From: a bacterium
GTDB taxonomy: Bacteria > Patescibacteriota > Minisyncoccia > Phycocordibacterales > GCA-002787175
DNA length: 64,000 nucleotides
Reading direction: 5' to 3'
Assembly (NCBI GenBank): GCA_030699905.1
Contig: JAUYKQ010000010.1
Coordinates: 2,554-66,553 of the forward strand
Positions 9,848 to 16,924 of this stretch are shown here, one piece after another; position 1 is the stretch's first letter; each line of letters starts with the position of its first letter. The position numbers and the translations under genes were made by a program. The notes beneath the pieces are model-generated. The model was not told where the DNA came from and searched no databases. It saw nothing but the letters and a program-made list of their open reading frames with translations.

Positions 9848-11675
9848 AGCCGATACTGCCTTCAAAGGAGAAGGTGTGGACTTTGACAATTAAAACTTGA
9901 AATATTAAAGATTTGAGACGTGCAAGGTCTCAAAGTCTATTCCTTCCCGGCAGTAGAGAATTAAAAATTTTCACTGCGGGAAAAAAATGATTCCACCGGC
10001 TGACTAAGACAGCCGGCAGAGCAAGTTCAAACTCTTAAAACAACAAACAAAATTTCAGCAAAAACTGTCTTTTGTTTTGTTCCGTTCTAAAAATGCAGAC
10101 AAGATGCAAACAAAACTCCGGCGGACGAGGGAGGCAACTCCTCCGTAGGTCGGAGCGATGTAGGCAATAATGTCCTCATTTCTTAAATTAGAGTTTGATC
10201 CTAGCTCAGGATGAACGCTGGCGGCGTGGATAAGGCATGCAAGTCAAGGGTGTGTGCGGAGCACACAGTTTATAAAGTTATAAAGTCATAAAGTTCATAA
10301 AGTCAGAATCTTCTGCTTTACAAACTTTTTACTTTACGAACTTGTAACTTGTGCGCTTCGCGCACAACCGGCAGACGAGGTAGTAATAAGTAGGAATGTC
10401 CCCAAGAGTCAGGCATAGCTACGCGAAAGCGTGGGTAATTCCTGATGGTCTGACCGCATCACATGGAATGTGAATTAAGTTTATCAAGTTCATAAAGTTG
10501 CAAGTTTATAAAGTAAGACCAATGCCGGATTTTTTAGGCTCGCTTTTCTTACTTGATGAACTTTATAACTTTTTACTTTATAAACTTATTTCGCCTCTCA
10601 TGTGATGCGGTCAGTAAAGTCGCAAGACGCTTTTGGAACAGCCTACTCGGTATCAGCTAGATGGTAGGGTAATGGCCTACCATGGCTATGACGCCTAGGG
10701 GGGGTGAGAGCCCGATCCCCACCGATCGGACTGAGATACGGCCGATACACCTACGGGTGGCTGCAGCCGAGAATATTCCGCAATGGGCGAAAGCCTGACG
10801 GAGCGACGCCGCGTGGTTGATGAAGTTCTTAGGAATGTAAAAACCTTTTATTAGGGAGGAAGCGTGCGAAGCACACTGTACATGACACTGATGACACGAA
10901 TGTAAAGAACGAATGACACGAATAAAATTAACAAGACTTGATTTTATTCGTGTCATTCGCATCTTCTATTCGTAGATTCGTGTCGAGTTCAGCGCGCTTC
11001 GCGCGTTTGACGTTACCTGATGAATAAGGGGTTGCTAAACTCGTGCCAGCAGCAGCGGTAATACGAGTGCCCCGAGCGTTATCCGGAATCATTGGGCGTA
11101 AAGGGTGTGTAGGCGGCTTTGTTAGTCCTCTGTTAAATTCTTCGGCTCAACCGGGGTCTTGCAGGGGATACGGCAAAGCTTGAGGGTGTGAGGGGTGAAT
11201 GGAACTCATGGTGTAGGGGTGAAATCCGTTGATATCATGGGGAACACCAAAAGCGAAGGCAATTCACTGGCGCACTCCTGACGCTGAAACACGAAAGCGT
11301 GGGTAGCGAATGGGATTAGATAATCCTTGCCCGCTAATAAAACATAGGCAAAAGGTGTCTCTCCCGAAGGCGACTTCGGGATGAAAATCTAGCTGTATCG
11401 GGGAAACTCTCTGACACTATGCGCTTACTGGCGCGTTGGAGACAATCCCGAGGGAAGTTTTCTTGCATTGAAAGAAGGTTAATTTACCTGCATTGTAATT
11501 CTTGGAGCAATGCTGGTGCGAGTAAGGGAAAAGAAAAACAACTGTCCATAGTCGGAGGGTTGGGTGTTGCGGGGCTATCTGCACATCTCTTTGTCCAGGA
11601 AAAACCACCAACAGAAAGCGTGAGTAATTCGTGAAAGCGTGAATATGTGTCCCTTACTCAATTTGTTCTTTGGGC

Positions 11676-11754
11676 GCGGATGTAGCTCAGTTGGAATGAG
11701 TATCACCTTGATAAGGTGAGGGTCGCAGGGTTCGAATCCTTGCCATCCGCTCCA
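11676..11754 (+). tRNA. tRNA-Ile(GAU)-like sequence embedded in the 5' half of the 16S site-788 intron. Cloverleaf with a slightly long variable/T region; may be a functional tRNA, a pseudo-tRNA or a tRNA-like intron domain.
   Basis: Acceptor gcggatg/catccgc, D-arm gctcagttggaatgagt, anticodon stem tcacc/ggtga with loop ttGATaa, T-loop ggttcgaatcc, 3' tcca. ~70% identical to bacterial tRNA-Ile(GAU). Confidence 0.55.
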
Positions 11755-11871
11755 TTTTTCCGCCGAATTTTCGAAAAATTTGGCACCTTCTTTCAGTGCA
11801 AGACGACCCCGTAGAGACTATGAAATTGAGCAAGATAGTTGGTGCATTTTCTGTCGTAATGCAAAAAATAT

Positions 11872-12639
11872 ATGCAAAACGCGGATTCAAAATATGTGCC
11901 TTTGTCGAATCAAGTGCGAGCCATTATTCTAGGGTCAATTCTTGGAGATGGGTCGCTCAAGATTCAAAACGAGTACGCCAATGCGAATTTACAAATTCGT
12001 CATTCGGAAACTCAAAAAGACTATCTCTTATGGAAAGCGAATGTGCTTAAAGAGATAGCCGGAGATGGTAGTGTGAGCGTGCAAAAGCCGGATGGATACA
12101 GTACGAAGCCAAAGTGGAGGTTCAGGAGCAAGAGAACTCCAGCATTGACCGAACTGCATCATTTGACCTATAAGCACAATGCCTTGCGCATCAGGCGCAC
12201 ATGGTTAAATCAAATGAACGCTTTGTCGCTCGCCGTATGGTGGTGCGATGACGGTTCACTTATTGGCTACGGAGGCAGAAAAGGGGTGTTTTGTACCGAC
12301 GGCTTTGATGAAGAGTCAGTCAAAATACTTGCTCGCTATCTTGGAGTGGTTTGGAACATACGAGCGATAGTTGCTCCTGTCGGGCGAAAGCGCGATGGAA
12401 AGCAAGATCAGTATTGGCGGTTATGGATTCGTTCGCAGGAAGAATTGAAGAAATTTCTGCGTATTATCCTGCCGTACATACCTGTTTCGAGTATGCTCAA
12501 AAAAGCCATTCTACTCTATAAAGACCCTCAATTTCAACAACGCTGGATATCTGAAGTAATCAAGCTAAGTCCTTTTCCAGAATCTGTCATACTGGCGGAA
12601 TTTGAAAAAAAGAAAGCTAAATGGAATTGCTACAGATAA
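11872..12639 (+). CDS. LAGLIDADG homing endonuclease, double-motif, intron-encoded.
   Basis: Motifs LGSILGDGSL and LAVWWCDDGSL. Located inside the 16S intron. Confidence 0.85.
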   Translation: MQNADSKYVPLSNQVRAIILGSILGDGSLKIQNEYANANLQIRHSETQKDYLLWKANVLKEIAGDGSVSVQKPDGYSTKPKWRFRSKRTPALTELHHLTYKHNALRIRRTWLNQMNALSLAVWWCDDGSLIGYGGRKGVFCTDGFDEESVKILARYLGVVWNIRAIVAPVGRKRDGKQDQYWRLWIRSQEELKKFLRIILPYIPVSSMLKKAILLYKDPQFQQRWISEVIKLSPFPESVILAEFEKKKAKWNCYR

Positions 12640-12818
12640 AGATATAGTCCGGACTGCATGGAAACATGTAGAGCGAGGCAGAAATGCCCTCGCCTCCGCA
12701 TCAGGCGGAAGTAACATTTTCAACCCCAGTAGTCCACGCCCTAAACGATGTTCATTTGCTTTTCGGAGTATCGACCCTCTGAGAGGCGTAGCTAACGCGT
12801 TAAATGAACCGCCTGGGT

Positions 12819-12850
<32 letters not shown>

Positions 12851-13267
12851 AGACGGGGACTTGCACAAGCGGTGGATCATGTGGTTTAATTCGATACTAA
12901 ACGAAGAACCTTACCAAGCCTAGACATCCAAGGGAACTCCAGTAGAAATATTGGAGGCCACCACTTTGCGCGGAAGACGCAAAGTGAGTTCGTCAAGTTA
13001 TAAAGTATAAAGTTCATCAAGTTAGAGAATGTCTTACTTGATAAACTTTAAGAACTTTTGACTTGATAAACTTACTTTGTTCGCTTGCGAACAAAGTGCG
13101 GGGAGGAAGGCGAGGATGACGCCAGATCAGCATGACCCTTTGACGGCTTGGGCTACACACGTGATACAATGGCTGTTACAACACGTTTGCGACGGAGTAA
13201 TCCTGAGCTAATCGTTATAAAAGCAGCCCCAGTTCGGATTGAGGTCTGCAACTCGACCTCATGAAGT

Positions 13268-13314
<47 letters not shown>

Positions 13315-13322
13315 TCAAGTCT

Positions 13323-14262
13323 TGTACTCGGGTCGCCATGCGATCGAGTACGCTAGTTGGTGACCCGTCCTTCGTTAAAATTACGGAGGGCACGGTCCAG
13401 CTGTAATTTTTGAGCTTAATTAAATAAAAACCCCTGCTTATTTTATAAGGGGGGTTTAGGATCTAGAACTCTGAAAGCTGTTGTTGCGAGTTTCTATCTC
13501 TATTCTGCGGGACCGGCGTTGGATCTATTCAAACCAACCGCTTTCGCTTTTGGGGACTGATTTCGAACATTCTTCCAGAACTCCCTGACAAGATCCCTAA
13601 TTAATTAGGTCAGGACTATGTTACATGTTATCATATCTTGTGTTATCAGTCAAGAGCTTGAAAATTACAGCTGGACACGTTTTCGCTGAAGCTATAGCGA
13701 GGCGAGGAAATCCAACCAAGACAATTCACAGTGTCTTGAAGCGAAATACTAGTCTACTGTCCGCGAGGACTATAGATGAAGGAGTAAAGTAGCATTTCTT
13801 AGCTTGAATGCCAGTCATGGCGCATAACAGAGGTTATCCTGCGAGTACATGGAGAAACCTACTGTGTTACAAAAACTGTTATGCGTATCGTGGCATCGAG
13901 ATGAGAAAAAACAGTGTATTCGGTTACCGTGGGAGATCTCACTTGTTCTTTGTTTTTAAAGAGCAAAGTAAGCAATATATTAGGACGGGCAAAAATTTCC
14001 TAAAGTATTGATTAACAATAAGTGAGAAGTCTGCAGAGTCCGTAGTACCTATCGAAGTAAAATTTGATAGGGAAGGGACGAACTTAGAGGTTGTATGTAA
14101 TTTTTAATTTTGCATTGCTTGTCCCGTAGCGAGTTCTGCTCTGCTACAGGGATCATTTTGCATTTTGAGATTTGCATTTTAAATTTCTAAGAACCGCTAG
14201 GGTGCGGGAAAACCGCTTGCCCAGTGGTGTTTGGCTATTGAAAATAAATATCAATTGACCGA
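13323..14262 (+). other. ~940-nt ORF-less insertion in 16S near E. coli site ~1390, between cttgtac and accgcccgtca. Contains a long-range inverted repeat (13395-13411 / 13664-13680). Possibly a degenerate intron or other intervening sequence.
   Basis: Flanking conserved 16S segments gaatacgttctc...cttgtac and accgcccgtcaactcaagggagt. No ORF longer than 67 aa. Confidence 0.5.
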
Positions 14263-14353
14263 AAAACCGCCCGTCAACTCAAGGGAGTTGGGAATACCCG
14301 AAGCGCACGCTTTGCGTGCACTACGGTAAGCTCAATAACAGGGAGTAAGTCGT

Positions 14354-15287
14354 TATTGTAAAATACAATTGCGACCTGTCAAGGAAACTTGACAGAAAAA
14401 TCCAACTGAAATCGGTGAACCCCTCCTCTTTAATTTGTTATAATTAAAGGCATGAAGGCAATACCGAGGGAAGCTGGGAGAGTCACTTATTCAACGGAGA
14501 TTCGAAAGTTAAAAAATATTTCTTTTACCGAGGAGCAAAGAGCTCTCATTATTGGAAGTATTTTAGGCGACGGATGTCTGTGTGATAATTGGTCAAAGAC
14601 CAATTATCGTTTGTTTATCAATCATTGTCTGGGACAAAAAGATTACGTATGGTGGAAATACGGTGTTCTTAAGAATTATATCCTTTCAGAACCTAGATAC
14701 TATGATAGGAATAATTCCCTTACTATCCGGACCATTAGTCACTCTGAATTATCAGAATTGCGGAATGTTTTCTACAGAGATAAACAAAAAATAATTCCTC
14801 AAAATATTCAAGAATTTCTAAAGGATCCTCGCGTGCTTGCAGTATGGTTTATGGATGATGGTAACAATGTTATCCGGAATGGAAAAATTATTGGTTACCA
14901 CATCAACACACAATCATTCACACGAAAAGAAAATAAATTGCTTGCAAAATGTCTGTATGCCATTTACGGCATAGAAGCTCTGTTAGAACGAAATCATAAA
15001 AGGTATAGATTAGCAATTTGGAAGCGAGATTCGAGGTTGAAAATTAGAAACTTGGTAAAGCCGTATGTATTGGAAAGTATGCAATACAAACTCGGTTGAA
15101 TAAGCGACTCTCCTTAGCCCCGTAGAGACTGGATTCCGCTTAAAAGCGGATGAAGATAGCATGCACATAATGTGTCGCAGTGCCTCGACATTGCGATTAC
15201 GGTGCTATAAAACGTTGGCTCCATTGATAATTATCAATCGGATGAAGATATAGTCCATGCCCCAATGAAAATTGGGGAGAGAACATG
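14354..15287 (+). mobile_element. Group I intron at 16S site 1506 (between GUCGU and AACAAGG) with an internal homing endonuclease ORF. 5' exon ends in U; intron ends in G (omega G at 15287). R-like ccgtagagactgg ~15123-15136, S gaagatatagtcc ~15243-15256, P9-like hairpin ccccaatgaaaattgggg.
   Basis: Precise restoration of gtaagtcgt|aacaaggcacgggtagcggaagctgc (h45). Canonical P7 elements are present. Confidence 0.75.
14452..15099 (+). CDS. LAGLIDADG homing endonuclease, double-motif, intron-encoded.
   Basis: Motifs IIGSILGDGCL and LAVWFMDDGN. Confidence 0.85.
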   Translation: MKAIPREAGRVTYSTEIRKLKNISFTEEQRALIIGSILGDGCLCDNWSKTNYRLFINHCLGQKDYVWWKYGVLKNYILSEPRYYDRNNSLTIRTISHSELSELRNVFYRDKQKIIPQNIQEFLKDPRVLAVWFMDDGNNVIRNGKIIGYHINTQSFTRKENKLLAKCLYAIYGIEALLERNHKRYRLAIWKRDSRLKIRNLVKPYVLESMQYKLG

Positions 15288-15765
15288 AACAAGGCACGGG
15301 TAGCGGAAGCTGCTCGTGGAATATTTCAAGTGAACAATGTCAGGAGCGGATTATCGCGGATAAAAACGCTGATAGACGCCGATGACTGAACGAGTCGATA
15401 TCGCTATCTCTACGGAGTAAGCGGTGGATAAGATTAATATCCTAAAAAAAATCTGACAGACCGGAAAGACGGCACCCGCCGTATCACATGGAATGTGATA
15501 GCGGAAATCCAAAGCACGAAATACTAAATCCTAAACAATATCAAAATTCAAATGACAAAAATTCCAAACAGTAGTCTCTATTTTGAATTTAATATTTTGA
15601 TAATTTGAATTTGTTTCGGATTTCGGTATTAGAATTTCGGATTTTCCGCATCATCGTGTCTCATGTGATGCGGCGGTAAGGAACGGAACAAAACAAAGGA
15701 CAGAAGGTAAAAGAAATTTCAATTTCTAATTGTCTAATTCACATAGATGAAGACAAAGAAGGGTC

Positions 15766-15799
15766 AAAAAAACGGCTAAATATATTTAGCCGTTTTTTT
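15766..15799. terminator. Bidirectional rho-independent terminator: palindrome cggctaaata|tatttagccg flanked by A7 and T7.
   Basis: Perfect palindrome with flanking A/T runs. Confidence 0.6.
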
Positions 15800-15842
15800 G
15801 TTGCTATAGCGCGCTATTTTTGGTATATTTTCAGAGTAATTT

Positions 15843-15919
15843 GCGAGTGTAGCTCAGGTGGTTAGAGCACTCCACTGATAATGGAGAGGTCCCAAGTTCG
15901 AGTCTTGGCACTCGCACCA
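15843..15919 (+). tRNA. tRNA-Ile(GAU), with encoded CCA.
   Basis: gcgagtg ta gctc aggtggtta gagc a ctcca ctGATaa tggag aggtc ccaag ttcgagt cttgg cactcgc a cca: a canonical cloverleaf. Confidence 0.85.
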
Positions 15920-15973: not shown

Positions 15974-16924
15974 TTATTTTCCTCCAACCAAACACACTAC
16001 GGTCCCATCAAAATTTCTGTTTTCTCTTACGGCTTGAATCAAACCGGCTATGGCTAACACCCCGTTTGGAGTCAGTTCCAAATCTGCTTTTTCTTTGACT
16101 AACTTTTGGGCCACCAGAATTTCTTCATTTGAAACAATCCAAGCCCCGCCACCGCTTTTATTTACAAAAAGTTTTACCCGCTCTTTGCGATGCCCGATTT
16201 TATCAACAATGGCGTCAGCGAGCGACTTTTCCTCTGCGACTTCTTCCGCCTTTTTTCCCAAAAGCAGACGAGCAATAGCATTACACCCGCTTGTCTGCGT
16301 AATATGATGGGCTACGAGTTTGTTTCTCCGGTAGATGTCCGCGGCGAGTCCTTCCGCCGTAGTACCCGAAGAACAGGCGGTGAAAATGTCTCTGACGTCG
16401 GGAATCTCCAAAATTTCCTCCGCCAGCTCAAAATATCCGATAAGAGCCGTGTCGTCGGTTGATTGTCGCAAACTCCGCACCTCGCCGCTTTTCGTAAATT
16501 CCAAAAGTTTCTGCTTAGGCCGTTCCTCTTCTATTATTTCAATTCTCCCGTCCTTCGTTTTCGCGAGTTCTTTTTTCTTTTCCTCATTTATATTTTTGCC
16601 GATAAAGACGGTAAGCGACAGGTCCTTTTCCGAAAGTGTTGCGAAGTGTCTTACCGCCGCCAGTCCTGCGTTTCCTGAAGAAGAAATGGCAAAACGGCGC
16701 GTCCCTTCGCTTTTGTACAGGTCAATCATGCGGGGAATAGAACGACCCTTATGCGAGCCGTACGGATGCAAGTCCTCCCGTTTTAAAAACAACCTTCTCA
16801 GCCCCAATGACGCGGTCAGTTTAGGATATTCCTCAGCGGGAGTTACGGTTTTAAATTCAGTTTCTCCGTCACTCCTTTCCGCTGAGTCGTTCCCGACAGT
16901 CAACGTTTTTTCCTGTTTTGACAT
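15974..16924 (-). CDS. PLP-dependent fold-type II enzyme, threonine synthase-like.
   Basis: PLP-lysine motif HPYGSHKGRS (compare ThrC PTGSFKDRG) and the glycine loop SSSGNAG. Confidence 0.6.
   Translation of the reverse strand: MSKQEKTLTVGNDSAERSDGETEFKTVTPAEEYPKLTASLGLRRLFLKREDLHPYGSHKGRSIPRMIDLYKSEGTRRFAISSSGNAGLAAVRHFATLSEKDLSLTVFIGKNINEEKKKELAKTKDGRIEIIEEERPKQKLLEFTKSGEVRSLRQSTDDTALIGYFELAEEILEIPDVRDIFTACSSGTTAEGLAADIYRRNKLVAHHITQTSGCNAIARLLLGKKAEEVAEEKSLADAIVDKIGHRKERVKLFVNKSGGGAWIVSNEEILVAQKLVKEKADLELTPNGVLAIAGLIQAVRENRNFDGTVVCLVGGK

Follow-up and report, generated by a model that had tools for sequence, protein, structure and literature searches.

A tRNA-like cloverleaf carried in a variable hairpin of a LAGLIDADG-encoding 16S rRNA intron from Patescibacteria

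The 16S intron, its cloverleaf and its variable hairpin

The stretch analyzed here (the window) is a 64-kb piece of contig JAUYKQ010000010.1 from a Patescibacteriota genome. It carries a 16S rRNA gene that is split by an intron, and this intron holds a tRNA-shaped cloverleaf. The only two tRNAs that ARAGORN detected in the window have the anticodon GAT and lie on the plus strand, at 11676-11754 and 15843-15919. The Rfam tRNA model (RF00005, gathering score 29 bits) assigned 57.5 bits to the first (E-value 8.8e-10 for the window) and 72.1 bits to the second. These calls agree with the original prediction, which had placed a GAU cloverleaf in the 5' half of a 16S intron and a canonical tRNA-Ile(GAU) with an encoded CCA behind the gene, and had proposed ARAGORN scoring of both. 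The cloverleaf occupies positions 354-432 of the 1401-nucleotide (nt) intron. The minimum-energy structure of the 79-mer on its own was exactly the cloverleaf (ensemble frequency 0.45, z-score −3.2). When the 549-nt 5' part of the intron was folded as a whole, mean pair probabilities in the four cloverleaf stems were still 0.69-0.97. The possibility that the region folds as a canonical intron P-domain instead, raised together with the prediction, did not hold: the cloverleaf folds independently inside an extension of the P-domain.

The same DNA was found in other assemblies. In Logan SRR13727534 and SRR26726065, the intron endonuclease protein was identical to that of the window, and the DNA was identical through the cloverleaf. 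One Logan contig (SRR13727534 / SRR26726065) covers the 16S exon, the cargo with the cloverleaf, and the endonuclease gene. Because identical DNA occurs in two independent assemblies, the cloverleaf is not an assembly artefact. The source is apparently a metagenome-assembled genome (MAG), as its closest relatives are MAGs, and rRNA regions are often misassembled. A chimera is nevertheless contradicted by the two other runs, one assembly spanning the exon, cargo and endonuclease junctions, and the Rfam E-value speaks against a cloverleaf formed by chance; we consider both explanations barely credible. The tRNA-shaped sequence in the mobile 16S intron is genuine. The features of the intron and its exons are the following.

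10183-11322, plus strand: 16S rRNA exon 1 (to E. coli ~A794), which holds three expansion inserts; Rfam SSU_rRNA_bacteria 646 bits; ends GGGATTAGATA
11323-12723, plus strand: group-I-like intron at 16S 794/795, 1401 nt; 16S resumes at 12724; same-site insertion in 40 genomes
11323-11457, plus strand: conserved 5' core of the intron (P1 partner, P2-type hairpins, P3 5' strand, P4-P5); 75-94% identity to relatives; ends CGAGGGAAG
11458-11806, plus strand: hypervariable hairpin (probably P6a), 349 nt, between two conserved anchors
11461-11479, plus strand: 5' arm of the basal stem (TCTTGCATTGAAAGAAGGT); 19 uninterrupted pairs with 11785-11803, mean pair probability 0.98
11480-11675, plus strand: structured non-coding cargo upstream of the cloverleaf; several hairpins, no convincing open reading frame (ORF)
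11676-11754, plus strand: tRNA-like cloverleaf with anticodon GAU, tRNA-Gly(GCC)-type body, T stem of 6 base pairs (bp), U73 and encoded CCA
11762-11784, plus strand: terminal hairpin GCCGAATTTTCGAAAAATTTGGC, which abuts the 3' arm of the basal stem
11785-11803, plus strand: 3' arm of the basal stem (ACCTTCTTTCAGTGCAAGA)
11807-11871, plus strand: conserved CCCCGTAGAGACTATG... segment (P6 3' strand, P7 5' strand GACTAT, P3 3' strand, P8-type hairpin), kept in all relatives
11872-12639, plus strand: LAGLIDADG homing endonuclease gene, 255 amino acids (aa); Pfam LAGLIDADG_2, 109 bits
12639-12723, plus strand: 3' part of the intron (J8/7 and P7 3' strand, AAGATATAGTCC, then P9, P9.1 and P9.2 hairpins); ends ...GTAACATTTTCAA; Rfam alignment with high posteriors
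12724-13330, plus strand: 16S exon 2 (from E. coli ~C795)
15843-15919, plus strand: canonical tRNA-Ile(GAU) with encoded CCA, the ordinary copy of the host; 72.1 bits; 71/74 identical to a Vogelbacteria tRNA-Ile

The 16S sequence breaks after GGGATTAGATA (11322) and picks up at CCCCAGTAGTCC (12724), with an ambiguity of 1 nt because an A flanks both ends. Counting from the 785F/806R primer region, we take the insertion site to be E. coli A794/C795, and the site 788 named earlier has to be corrected accordingly. At the 3' end of the intron, the Rfam model Intron_gpI matched with 34 bits, below its gathering score of 50 (E-value 1.4e-6, 1.5-kb search), and the match was strong at J8/7, P7 and P9. 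The core is interrupted by both the endonuclease ORF and the cargo, which lowers the score. Sub-threshold Intron_gpI matches were present at the homologous place in 6 relatives, and in the locus L004 model positions 60-140 matched just upstream of its insert. AAGATATAGTCC directly follows the endonuclease stop codon and is itself followed by hairpins, as is characteristic of J8/7, P7 and P9 in group I introns; the P9 hairpins covary among the relatives. The minimum-energy fold of the 5' part contained, in the expected order, the P3 5' strand, the P4-P5 hairpin, the P6 hairpin, a single-stranded GACTAT, and the P3 3' strand. GACTAT is assigned to the P7 5' strand because it is complementary to ATAGTC at 12644-12649 in the 3' part of the intron.

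The 5' exon can be read as ending in U793, as the group I G.U pair in P1 expects. At the other end, the subfamily of the window finishes with ...TTCA before ACCCC and has no terminal G; many relatives finish with ...TG before ACCCC, which fits omega G. A Coxiella 23S intron without a canonical omega G is on record, going by an entry in the reference list of PMC11270868. The endonuclease had 969 homologues, mostly from Patescibacteria, and the same intron was located at the same 16S site, after GATTAGATA, in 40 species-level genomes or loci of many Patescibacteria lineages. The host element is a LAGLIDADG-encoding, group-I-like homing intron of a family common in Patescibacteria (Candidate Phyla Radiation, CPR).

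Introns of such a kind have been described for CPR bacteria (PMC11270868). LAGLIDADG group I introns in CPR 16S genes were reported by Brown et al. 2015, as summarised in PMC11270868, and by Tsurumaki et al. 2024 (PMC11270868). They have in common with the intron of the window a universally conserved 16S site, a LAGLIDADG_2 gene, group-I-type J8/7, P7 and P9 elements, a patchy spread over Patescibacteria, and the presence of several introns per gene. The window differs in that its hairpin holds a tRNA-like cloverleaf; a variable hairpin with small-ORF cargo does not figure in the CPR survey (PMC11270868), where the word "tRNA" occurs zero times. For a tRNA nested in an rRNA or group I intron, or for a P6a slot carrying small genes, we found no precedent in PMC11270868, the Patescibacteria intron paper or full-text searches, which cover the literature incompletely. 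The intron itself is of a known kind, and the tRNA-like cargo, seen in the sequence of one lineage only, appears to be without a precedent among these sources. Outside the phylum, Salman and co-workers are said to have described in 2012 the S795 group I intron of giant sulfur bacteria, in the 16S 790 loop at about the same position. That intron belongs to another phylum and is likened to ours by position; it is not known to contain a tRNA-like insert.

The cloverleaf stands in the most variable part of the intron. The flanks at 11250-11476 and 11780-11900 aligned to relatives at 75-94% identity, and 11477-11779 aligned to nothing in related introns. The length of the variable segment was measured between the anchors CGAGGGAAG (ending at 11457) and CCCCGTAGAGACTATG (starting at 11807; CCCCGTAGAG is also given as the downstream anchor). 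It was 13-65 nt in 29 other intron copies (13-34 nt in 25 of them), 107-291 nt in 16, and 349 nt in the window and its identical copy L041. The ends of the segment paired with each other in all 40 distinct inserts, with 31 different arm sequences. Since the ends always pair despite this diversity, the segment is a genuine hairpin with a freely varying tip, and its position indicates that it is probably P6a. The basal stem of the window comprises 19 bp, or about 22 bp if flanking pairs are counted. The distal 305 nt are branched, with the non-coding part (11480-11675), the cloverleaf and the 11762-11784 hairpin as separate elements (fold of 11455-11810, z-score −6.4).

The contents of this hairpin were compared among the relatives, where the inserts equivalent to window 11458-11806 lie at the following positions of their loci.

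L001, 2308-2585
L002, 2664-2939
L006, 2639-2929
L003/L048, 2738-2934
L043, 242-505
L047, 213-491
L169, 1241-1437

The long inserts of L001, L002, L006, L003/L048, L043-46 and L047, and of L169/170, contained a ribosome-binding site, an ATG-initiated ORF of 33-65 aa, and a terminal hairpin. This hairpin was found at the position equivalent to that in the window in L001, L002, L006, L043, L047 and L169. L001, L002 and L006 are related inserts, with a peptide family of about 60 aa in common and the same basal stem as the window; the remaining inserts are mutually unrelated. In L043 and L047, the flanks were 92-99% identical to the window and the inserts were entirely different. The hairpin thus acts like a slot whose cargo is exchanged rapidly. 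The long inserts of L004, L010/L011 and L015 had no convincing ORF, and a Pfam scan of the cargo peptides of the relatives gave nothing above threshold. Several of these peptides are strongly hydrophobic (MSFGELVLLLVVIGGLVVFF..., a 60-aa two-segment peptide, and MDWIDLTVRSFGTCVVIAGVALLVLSF...). Speculatively, short hydrophobic peptides encoded in highly structured RNA are reminiscent of type I toxins.

None of the related introns contained a tRNA according to ARAGORN on 51 loci (40 species-level relatives and 11 further close copies), Rfam at the gathering threshold on 17 loci, or Rfam in E-value mode on 6 loci. The cloverleaf is thus not part of the conserved intron and, among the introns compared, is cargo of a single lineage.

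The rest of the cargo in the window, at 11480-11675, contained no ATG-initiated ORF with a ribosome-binding site and matched no Rfam family. A 71-aa ORF at 11419-11634, which was considered as a cargo gene, begins in the conserved core and looks spurious. A 24-nt motif, TGTCC(A/T)GGAAAAACCAC...CAAC, is common to window positions 11590-11615 and positions 120-143 of the L004 insert. In L004, whose insert is non-coding, it forms the loop and 3' arm of a hairpin, and the two inserts are otherwise unrelated. The cargo stretch 11614-11634 (GAAAGCGTGAGTAATTCGTGA) matched 10425-10445 in exon 1 of its own 16S gene at 19 of 21 positions, which was equalled by 1 of 300 shuffles; this may be chance or a trace of a patchwork origin. 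Both similarities are too weak to build a homology to other inserts or to the 16S gene on.

Body, anticodon and origin of the cloverleaf

The cloverleaf was identical to the downstream tRNA-Ile at 53 of 73 positions (73%). Its identity to other tRNA-Ile(GAU) was at most 0.67 in a panel of 171 tRNAs from all fetched loci, which included 49 Ile(GAU) entries, the query's own copy among them. Against the tRNA-Ile genes of 10 Patescibacteria, 45-55 matches were counted per 70-74 aligned positions. In a 7.3-Gb bacterial collection, the five best near-full-length blastn matches came from three phyla, and ARAGORN classified all of them as tRNA-Gly(GCC): Nocardia (85% identity), Tsukamurella (83%), Nonomuraea (82%), Parabacteroides (82%) and Klebsiella (81%). 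The acceptor stem GCGGATG/CATCCGC, U73, the CCA, the anticodon stem TCACC/GGTGA, the variable loop GGGTC and the T loop are the same as in the Nocardia gene. The differences are concentrated in three regions, namely the D arm, the T stem and two positions of the anticodon, which is GAT where the Nocardia gene has GCC; C35A and C36U alone turn the GCC anticodon into the "isoleucine" GAU. Among E. coli tRNAs, the best match was tRNA-Val for the intronic cloverleaf and tRNA-Ile for the downstream copy. By sequence, the body of the cloverleaf is that of a tRNA-Gly(GCC) and not a copy of the host tRNA-Ile, so its likeness to the classic spacer tRNA lies in the anticodon only.

Of the canonical tRNA features, the cloverleaf has a 7-bp acceptor stem, U8, A14, G18G19, U33, and GGTTCGAATCC in the T arm. 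Its anticodon loop, UUGAUAA, has the G34, A35, U36, A37 and A38 of tRNA-Ile(GAU). It deviates from a canonical tRNA in having a 6-bp T stem (Infernal inserts one base per strand), U21 in place of A21, and U73, and its acceptor/T stack consists of 13 bp instead of 12. Compared with bacterial tRNA-Gly(GCC), to which it is 81-85% identical over nearly the full length, it is thus set apart by the GAU anticodon, a T stem of 6 bp and not 5, the extra D-loop base, U21, and its location in an rRNA intron. The question of whether it is a pseudogene was gauged by Infernal scores, with the tRNA genes of the relatives as the baseline. Its 57.5 bits were below all 10 tRNA-Ile genes of the relatives (69.7-79.4 bits) and within the range of the other tRNAs there (51.8-79.4 bits).

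The identity elements are mixed as well. The determinants of bacterial glycyl-tRNA synthetase (GlyRS) are U73, G1-C72, C2-G71, C35 and C36, and the combination of U73 with G71 has been reported only in tRNA-Gly (PMC9976931). Isoleucyl-tRNA synthetase (IleRS) recognizes, in the E. coli set, the anticodon and A73, with minor contributions from C4-G69 and C29-G41 (PMC9976931). The glycine acceptor end is present in the cloverleaf (U73, G1-C72, C2-G71), and the glycine C35 and C36 are absent, being replaced by A35 and U36. The isoleucine elements A73, C4-G69 and C29-G41 are also absent, as the cloverleaf has U73, G4-C69 and A29-U41. It therefore qualifies neither as a tRNA-Ile isoacceptor nor as a spacer tRNA. 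An annotation based on the anticodon would give the genome a second "tRNA-Ile" despite the tRNA-Gly body.

The intronic copy had been suggested to be a captured fragment of the 16S-23S spacer with its tRNA-Ile(GAU). Such an origin would account for the anticodon, which is the same as that of the downstream tRNA, and for the CCA, which is encoded by both copies in the window, unlike the tRNA-Ile genes of the 10 relatives compared. The evidence is against it: the identity to the host copy is only 73% and that to the panel no better, the acceptor stem, discriminator, anticodon stem and variable loop are all those of a tRNA-Gly(GCC), and the flanks of the cloverleaf resemble neither the post-16S region of the window nor those of the relatives. 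We therefore rejected the capture of a host spacer tRNA, which now appears highly improbable. A phage origin was considered and discarded as well. A degenerate pattern of the cloverleaf had no match in IMG/VR, and the best match in 50,697 phage records was a tRNA-Val with 87% identity over 55 nt. The endonuclease family was absent from IMG/VR.

A metagenome scan with a pattern for Ile-anticodon tRNAs having a 6-bp T stem showed no close relative of the cloverleaf, and none inside a 16S gene, among at least 120 matches listed; the pattern was too loose for the scan to be informative about absence elsewhere. Seven metagenome loci (L051, L070, L093, L127, L137, L141, L155) had a tRNA-Ile-type 3' half, starting from GATAAGG, behind non-tRNA sequence. 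These may be intron-containing or otherwise split tRNA-Ile genes unrelated to the intronic cloverleaf.

Possible roles of the cloverleaf

With a probability of roughly 55%, we regard the cloverleaf as a passenger that is possibly clipped and probably does not decode, that is, as lineage-specific, tRNA-Gly-derived cargo in a hairpin of a homing intron. Recombination would have brought it into a slot where inserts are tolerated and exchanged, and the splicing of the intron would proceed independently of it. The cloverleaf would be transcribed within the pre-16S rRNA. RNase P and the 3'-end processing enzymes read the acceptor/T minihelix of their substrates. Because this minihelix, the T loop and the CCA are intact, these enzymes would probably clip the cloverleaf out of the precursor or of the excised intron. 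The long basal stem may insulate the ribozyme core from the cargo and would keep both intron halves together after clipping. In translation, the product is predicted to be inactive or weak, as a poor substrate for IleRS, GlyRS and elongation factor Tu (EF-Tu), since it combines a glycine acceptor end without C35/C36, an isoleucine anticodon without A73, C4-G69 and C29-G41, and a 13-bp stack.

Several points weigh against this account or limit it, the chief one against a mere passenger being how well the stems and contact bases are preserved, the paired insertion in the T stem included. The four stems are perfectly paired, and the bases of the tertiary contacts are intact (U8, A14, G15-C48, G18G19, U33, A37 and GGTTCGAATCC). 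Such order exceeds the expectation for an old, freely decaying pseudogene. For the extra pair of the T stem, each strand must have gained a base, a hint that the structure is under selection; as no diverged copies were found, selection is neither shown nor excluded. The lack of any diverged copy is in turn the chief argument against a function; this absence is weakly established, as the metagenome scan covered only the matches listed. The host tRNA-Gly lies outside the window, and local capture and foreign origin are therefore indistinguishable. The 5' leader (UGGG) is predicted to pair with U73-CCA with a probability of 0.5-0.6, which might hinder recognition by RNase P and the 3'-end enzymes. 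Both the splicing of the intron and the processing of the cloverleaf are predictions here.

The same structural integrity could mean that the cloverleaf is retained as a processing handle, that is, because RNase P and RNase Z cut there. The cut would part the 5' half of the intron from the endonuclease mRNA or start the turnover of the intron. Processing sites of this type are familiar from the spacer tRNAs that divide up rRNA operons and from MALAT1, whose 3' end is set by the mascRNA cloverleaf. The intact acceptor/T minihelix, the T loop and the encoded CCA speak for such a handle, and the structure has been kept though the decoding identity is scrambled. The cloverleaf is situated 117 nt upstream of the endonuclease start codon, and the basal stem, with its 19 bp (about 22 with the flanking pairs), could hold a nicked ribozyme together. 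However, endonucleases of the same family are expressed from about 50 homologous introns in which there is no tRNA, and because the relatives lack the cloverleaf, a handle is not required for the intron family. The predicted pairing of the leader with the CCA end also counts against it. On balance, we think a retained handle unlikely. A working decoder carried by the mobile intron is more doubtful still. It could act as an extra tRNA-Ile, charged by IleRS via the anticodon loop, or as a mis-sense tRNA, charged by GlyRS via U73, G1-C72 and C2-G71. IleRS relies strongly on the anticodon, and U73 together with G71 marks a tRNA as one for glycine (PMC9976931). No part of the cloverleaf is missing, GAU, U33, A37 and A38 included, and the slot can carry apparent genes, as six relatives hold small ORFs with ribosome-binding sites. 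Both routes of charging are compromised, however: the first by the missing A73, C4-G69 and C29-G41, and the second by the missing C35 and C36. The 6-bp T stem extends the acceptor/T stack to 13 bp, and a stack of this length disfavours EF-Tu binding, as in tRNA-Sec. In addition, U21 replaces the near-universal A21, none of the tRNA-Ile genes compared scores lower, and a canonical host tRNA-Ile(GAU) is already available 4 kb away.

A part in the ribozyme itself was also weighed, since the original prediction had offered a tRNA-like structural domain of the intron as one explanation. The cloverleaf would then stabilize P4-P6 or attract a tRNA-binding protein, for example an aminoacyl-tRNA synthetase, that assists splicing, a part played in some fungal group I introns by mitochondrial TyrRS (CYT-18) and LeuRS. 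Its location in the P4-P6 half of the intron and its well-preserved stems would suit this role. It is missing, however, from every one of the 40 species-level relatives and 11 close copies, some of which have a mere 13-15-nt hairpin at this place, and in the window it shares with other branches a 349-nt insert that a long stem separates from the core. This makes a structural domain very improbable. A bolder and tentative reading, which we hold to be rather unlikely, treats the probable P6a hairpin as a cargo bay that swaps small genes between introns, with the cloverleaf as a selected, expressed product. Released as a substrate of RNase P and RNase Z, this product could control the expression of the endonuclease or the turnover of the intron. 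Alternatively, it could be a tRNA of switched identity, with a glycine acceptor end and an isoleucine anticodon, through which the mobile element affects host translation. The relatives would carry small hydrophobic or basic peptides as cargo, and the lineage of the window a chimeric tRNA.

Some known systems resemble parts of this arrangement. tRNAs punctuate rRNA in the spacers of bacterial rrn operons (tRNA-Ile/Ala) and between two large-subunit rRNA pieces in Tetrahymena mitochondria (tRNA-Leu). As in these cases, the cloverleaf is embedded in the precursor of an rRNA, at a place that RNase P and the 3'-end processing enzymes would cleave; those tRNAs are, however, working ones that stand between rRNA genes or pieces, whereas the cloverleaf is located in a peripheral hairpin of a presumably spliced intron and its identity is scrambled. 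The mascRNA of MALAT1 is likewise a cloverleaf in a longer non-tRNA transcript, non-decoding and recognized by RNase P and RNase Z, but it is eukaryotic and conserved across species, whereas the intronic cloverleaf is known from the sequence of one lineage. Phage tRNA genes also ride on selfish mobile elements. In our case the carrier is an intron and not a virus, and there is no close match in the phage records or IMG/VR.

The endonuclease-bearing rRNA introns of Patescibacteria have been treated so far as a ribozyme plus a homing gene. The present locus suggests that one peripheral hairpin of such an intron is a tolerated, fast-changing cargo slot, which can take up even a whole RNA of tRNA shape. 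Should the cloverleaf prove to be processed or charged, bacteria would provide an example of a tRNA nested in an rRNA intron, and of a natural tRNA with conflicting acceptor and anticodon identities. Such a case would be relevant to conflicts between introns and their hosts, to the maturation of rRNA in reduced genomes, and to the evolution of tRNA identity.

The downstream tRNA-Ile and the rest of the 16S gene

The canonical tRNA-Ile(GAU) begins about 510 nt past the end of the 16S gene. It had been taken for the classic 16S-23S spacer tRNA, which the surroundings do not support: no 23S gene follows, and a minus-strand ORF occupies 15974-16924 downstream. A terminator-like element (A-run, hairpin and T-run) at 15765-15800 is followed by a promoter-like site with an extended −10 at 15801-15829, just upstream of the tRNA. 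Owing to these two elements, the tRNA-Ile may be a transcription unit of its own and not a part of the 16S transcript. The post-16S tRNA-Ile(GAU) genes of ten relatives (L001, L004, L006, L010, L012, L017, L019, L029, L036 and L037) were inspected for comparison: none of the 10 encodes a full CCA, and L017 and L037 encode only CC.

The rRNA genes of the window are unlinked and in an unusual order. The 3' end of a 23S gene (542-930) and a 5S gene (1101-1219) precede the 16S gene by about 9 kb, and protein genes are found in the interval. The 23S match spans 389 nt for about 257 model positions, and it may also hold an insert.

The 16S gene itself (10183-15330) is a mosaic. The three expansion inserts of exon 1 measure 95, 144 and 132 nt. 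A second insertion extends over about 13331-14261 and contains a match to group II D1-D4 at 14009-14078. A short exon (14262-14343) then precedes a third intron, 14344 to about 15287, with a LAGLIDADG_2 gene at 14452-15099 and a group I match at 14941-15277; the motifs CCCCGTAGAGACT and GATGAAGATATAGTCC are common to it and the first intron. The last 16S exon, at about 15288-15330, reads AACAAGGCACGGGTAGCGGAAGCTGCTCGTGGAATATTTC. No GGATCACCTCCT-like anti-Shine-Dalgarno tail was located within 2 mismatches near this exon. Either the 3' end of this 16S gene is atypical, or a further interruption was missed.

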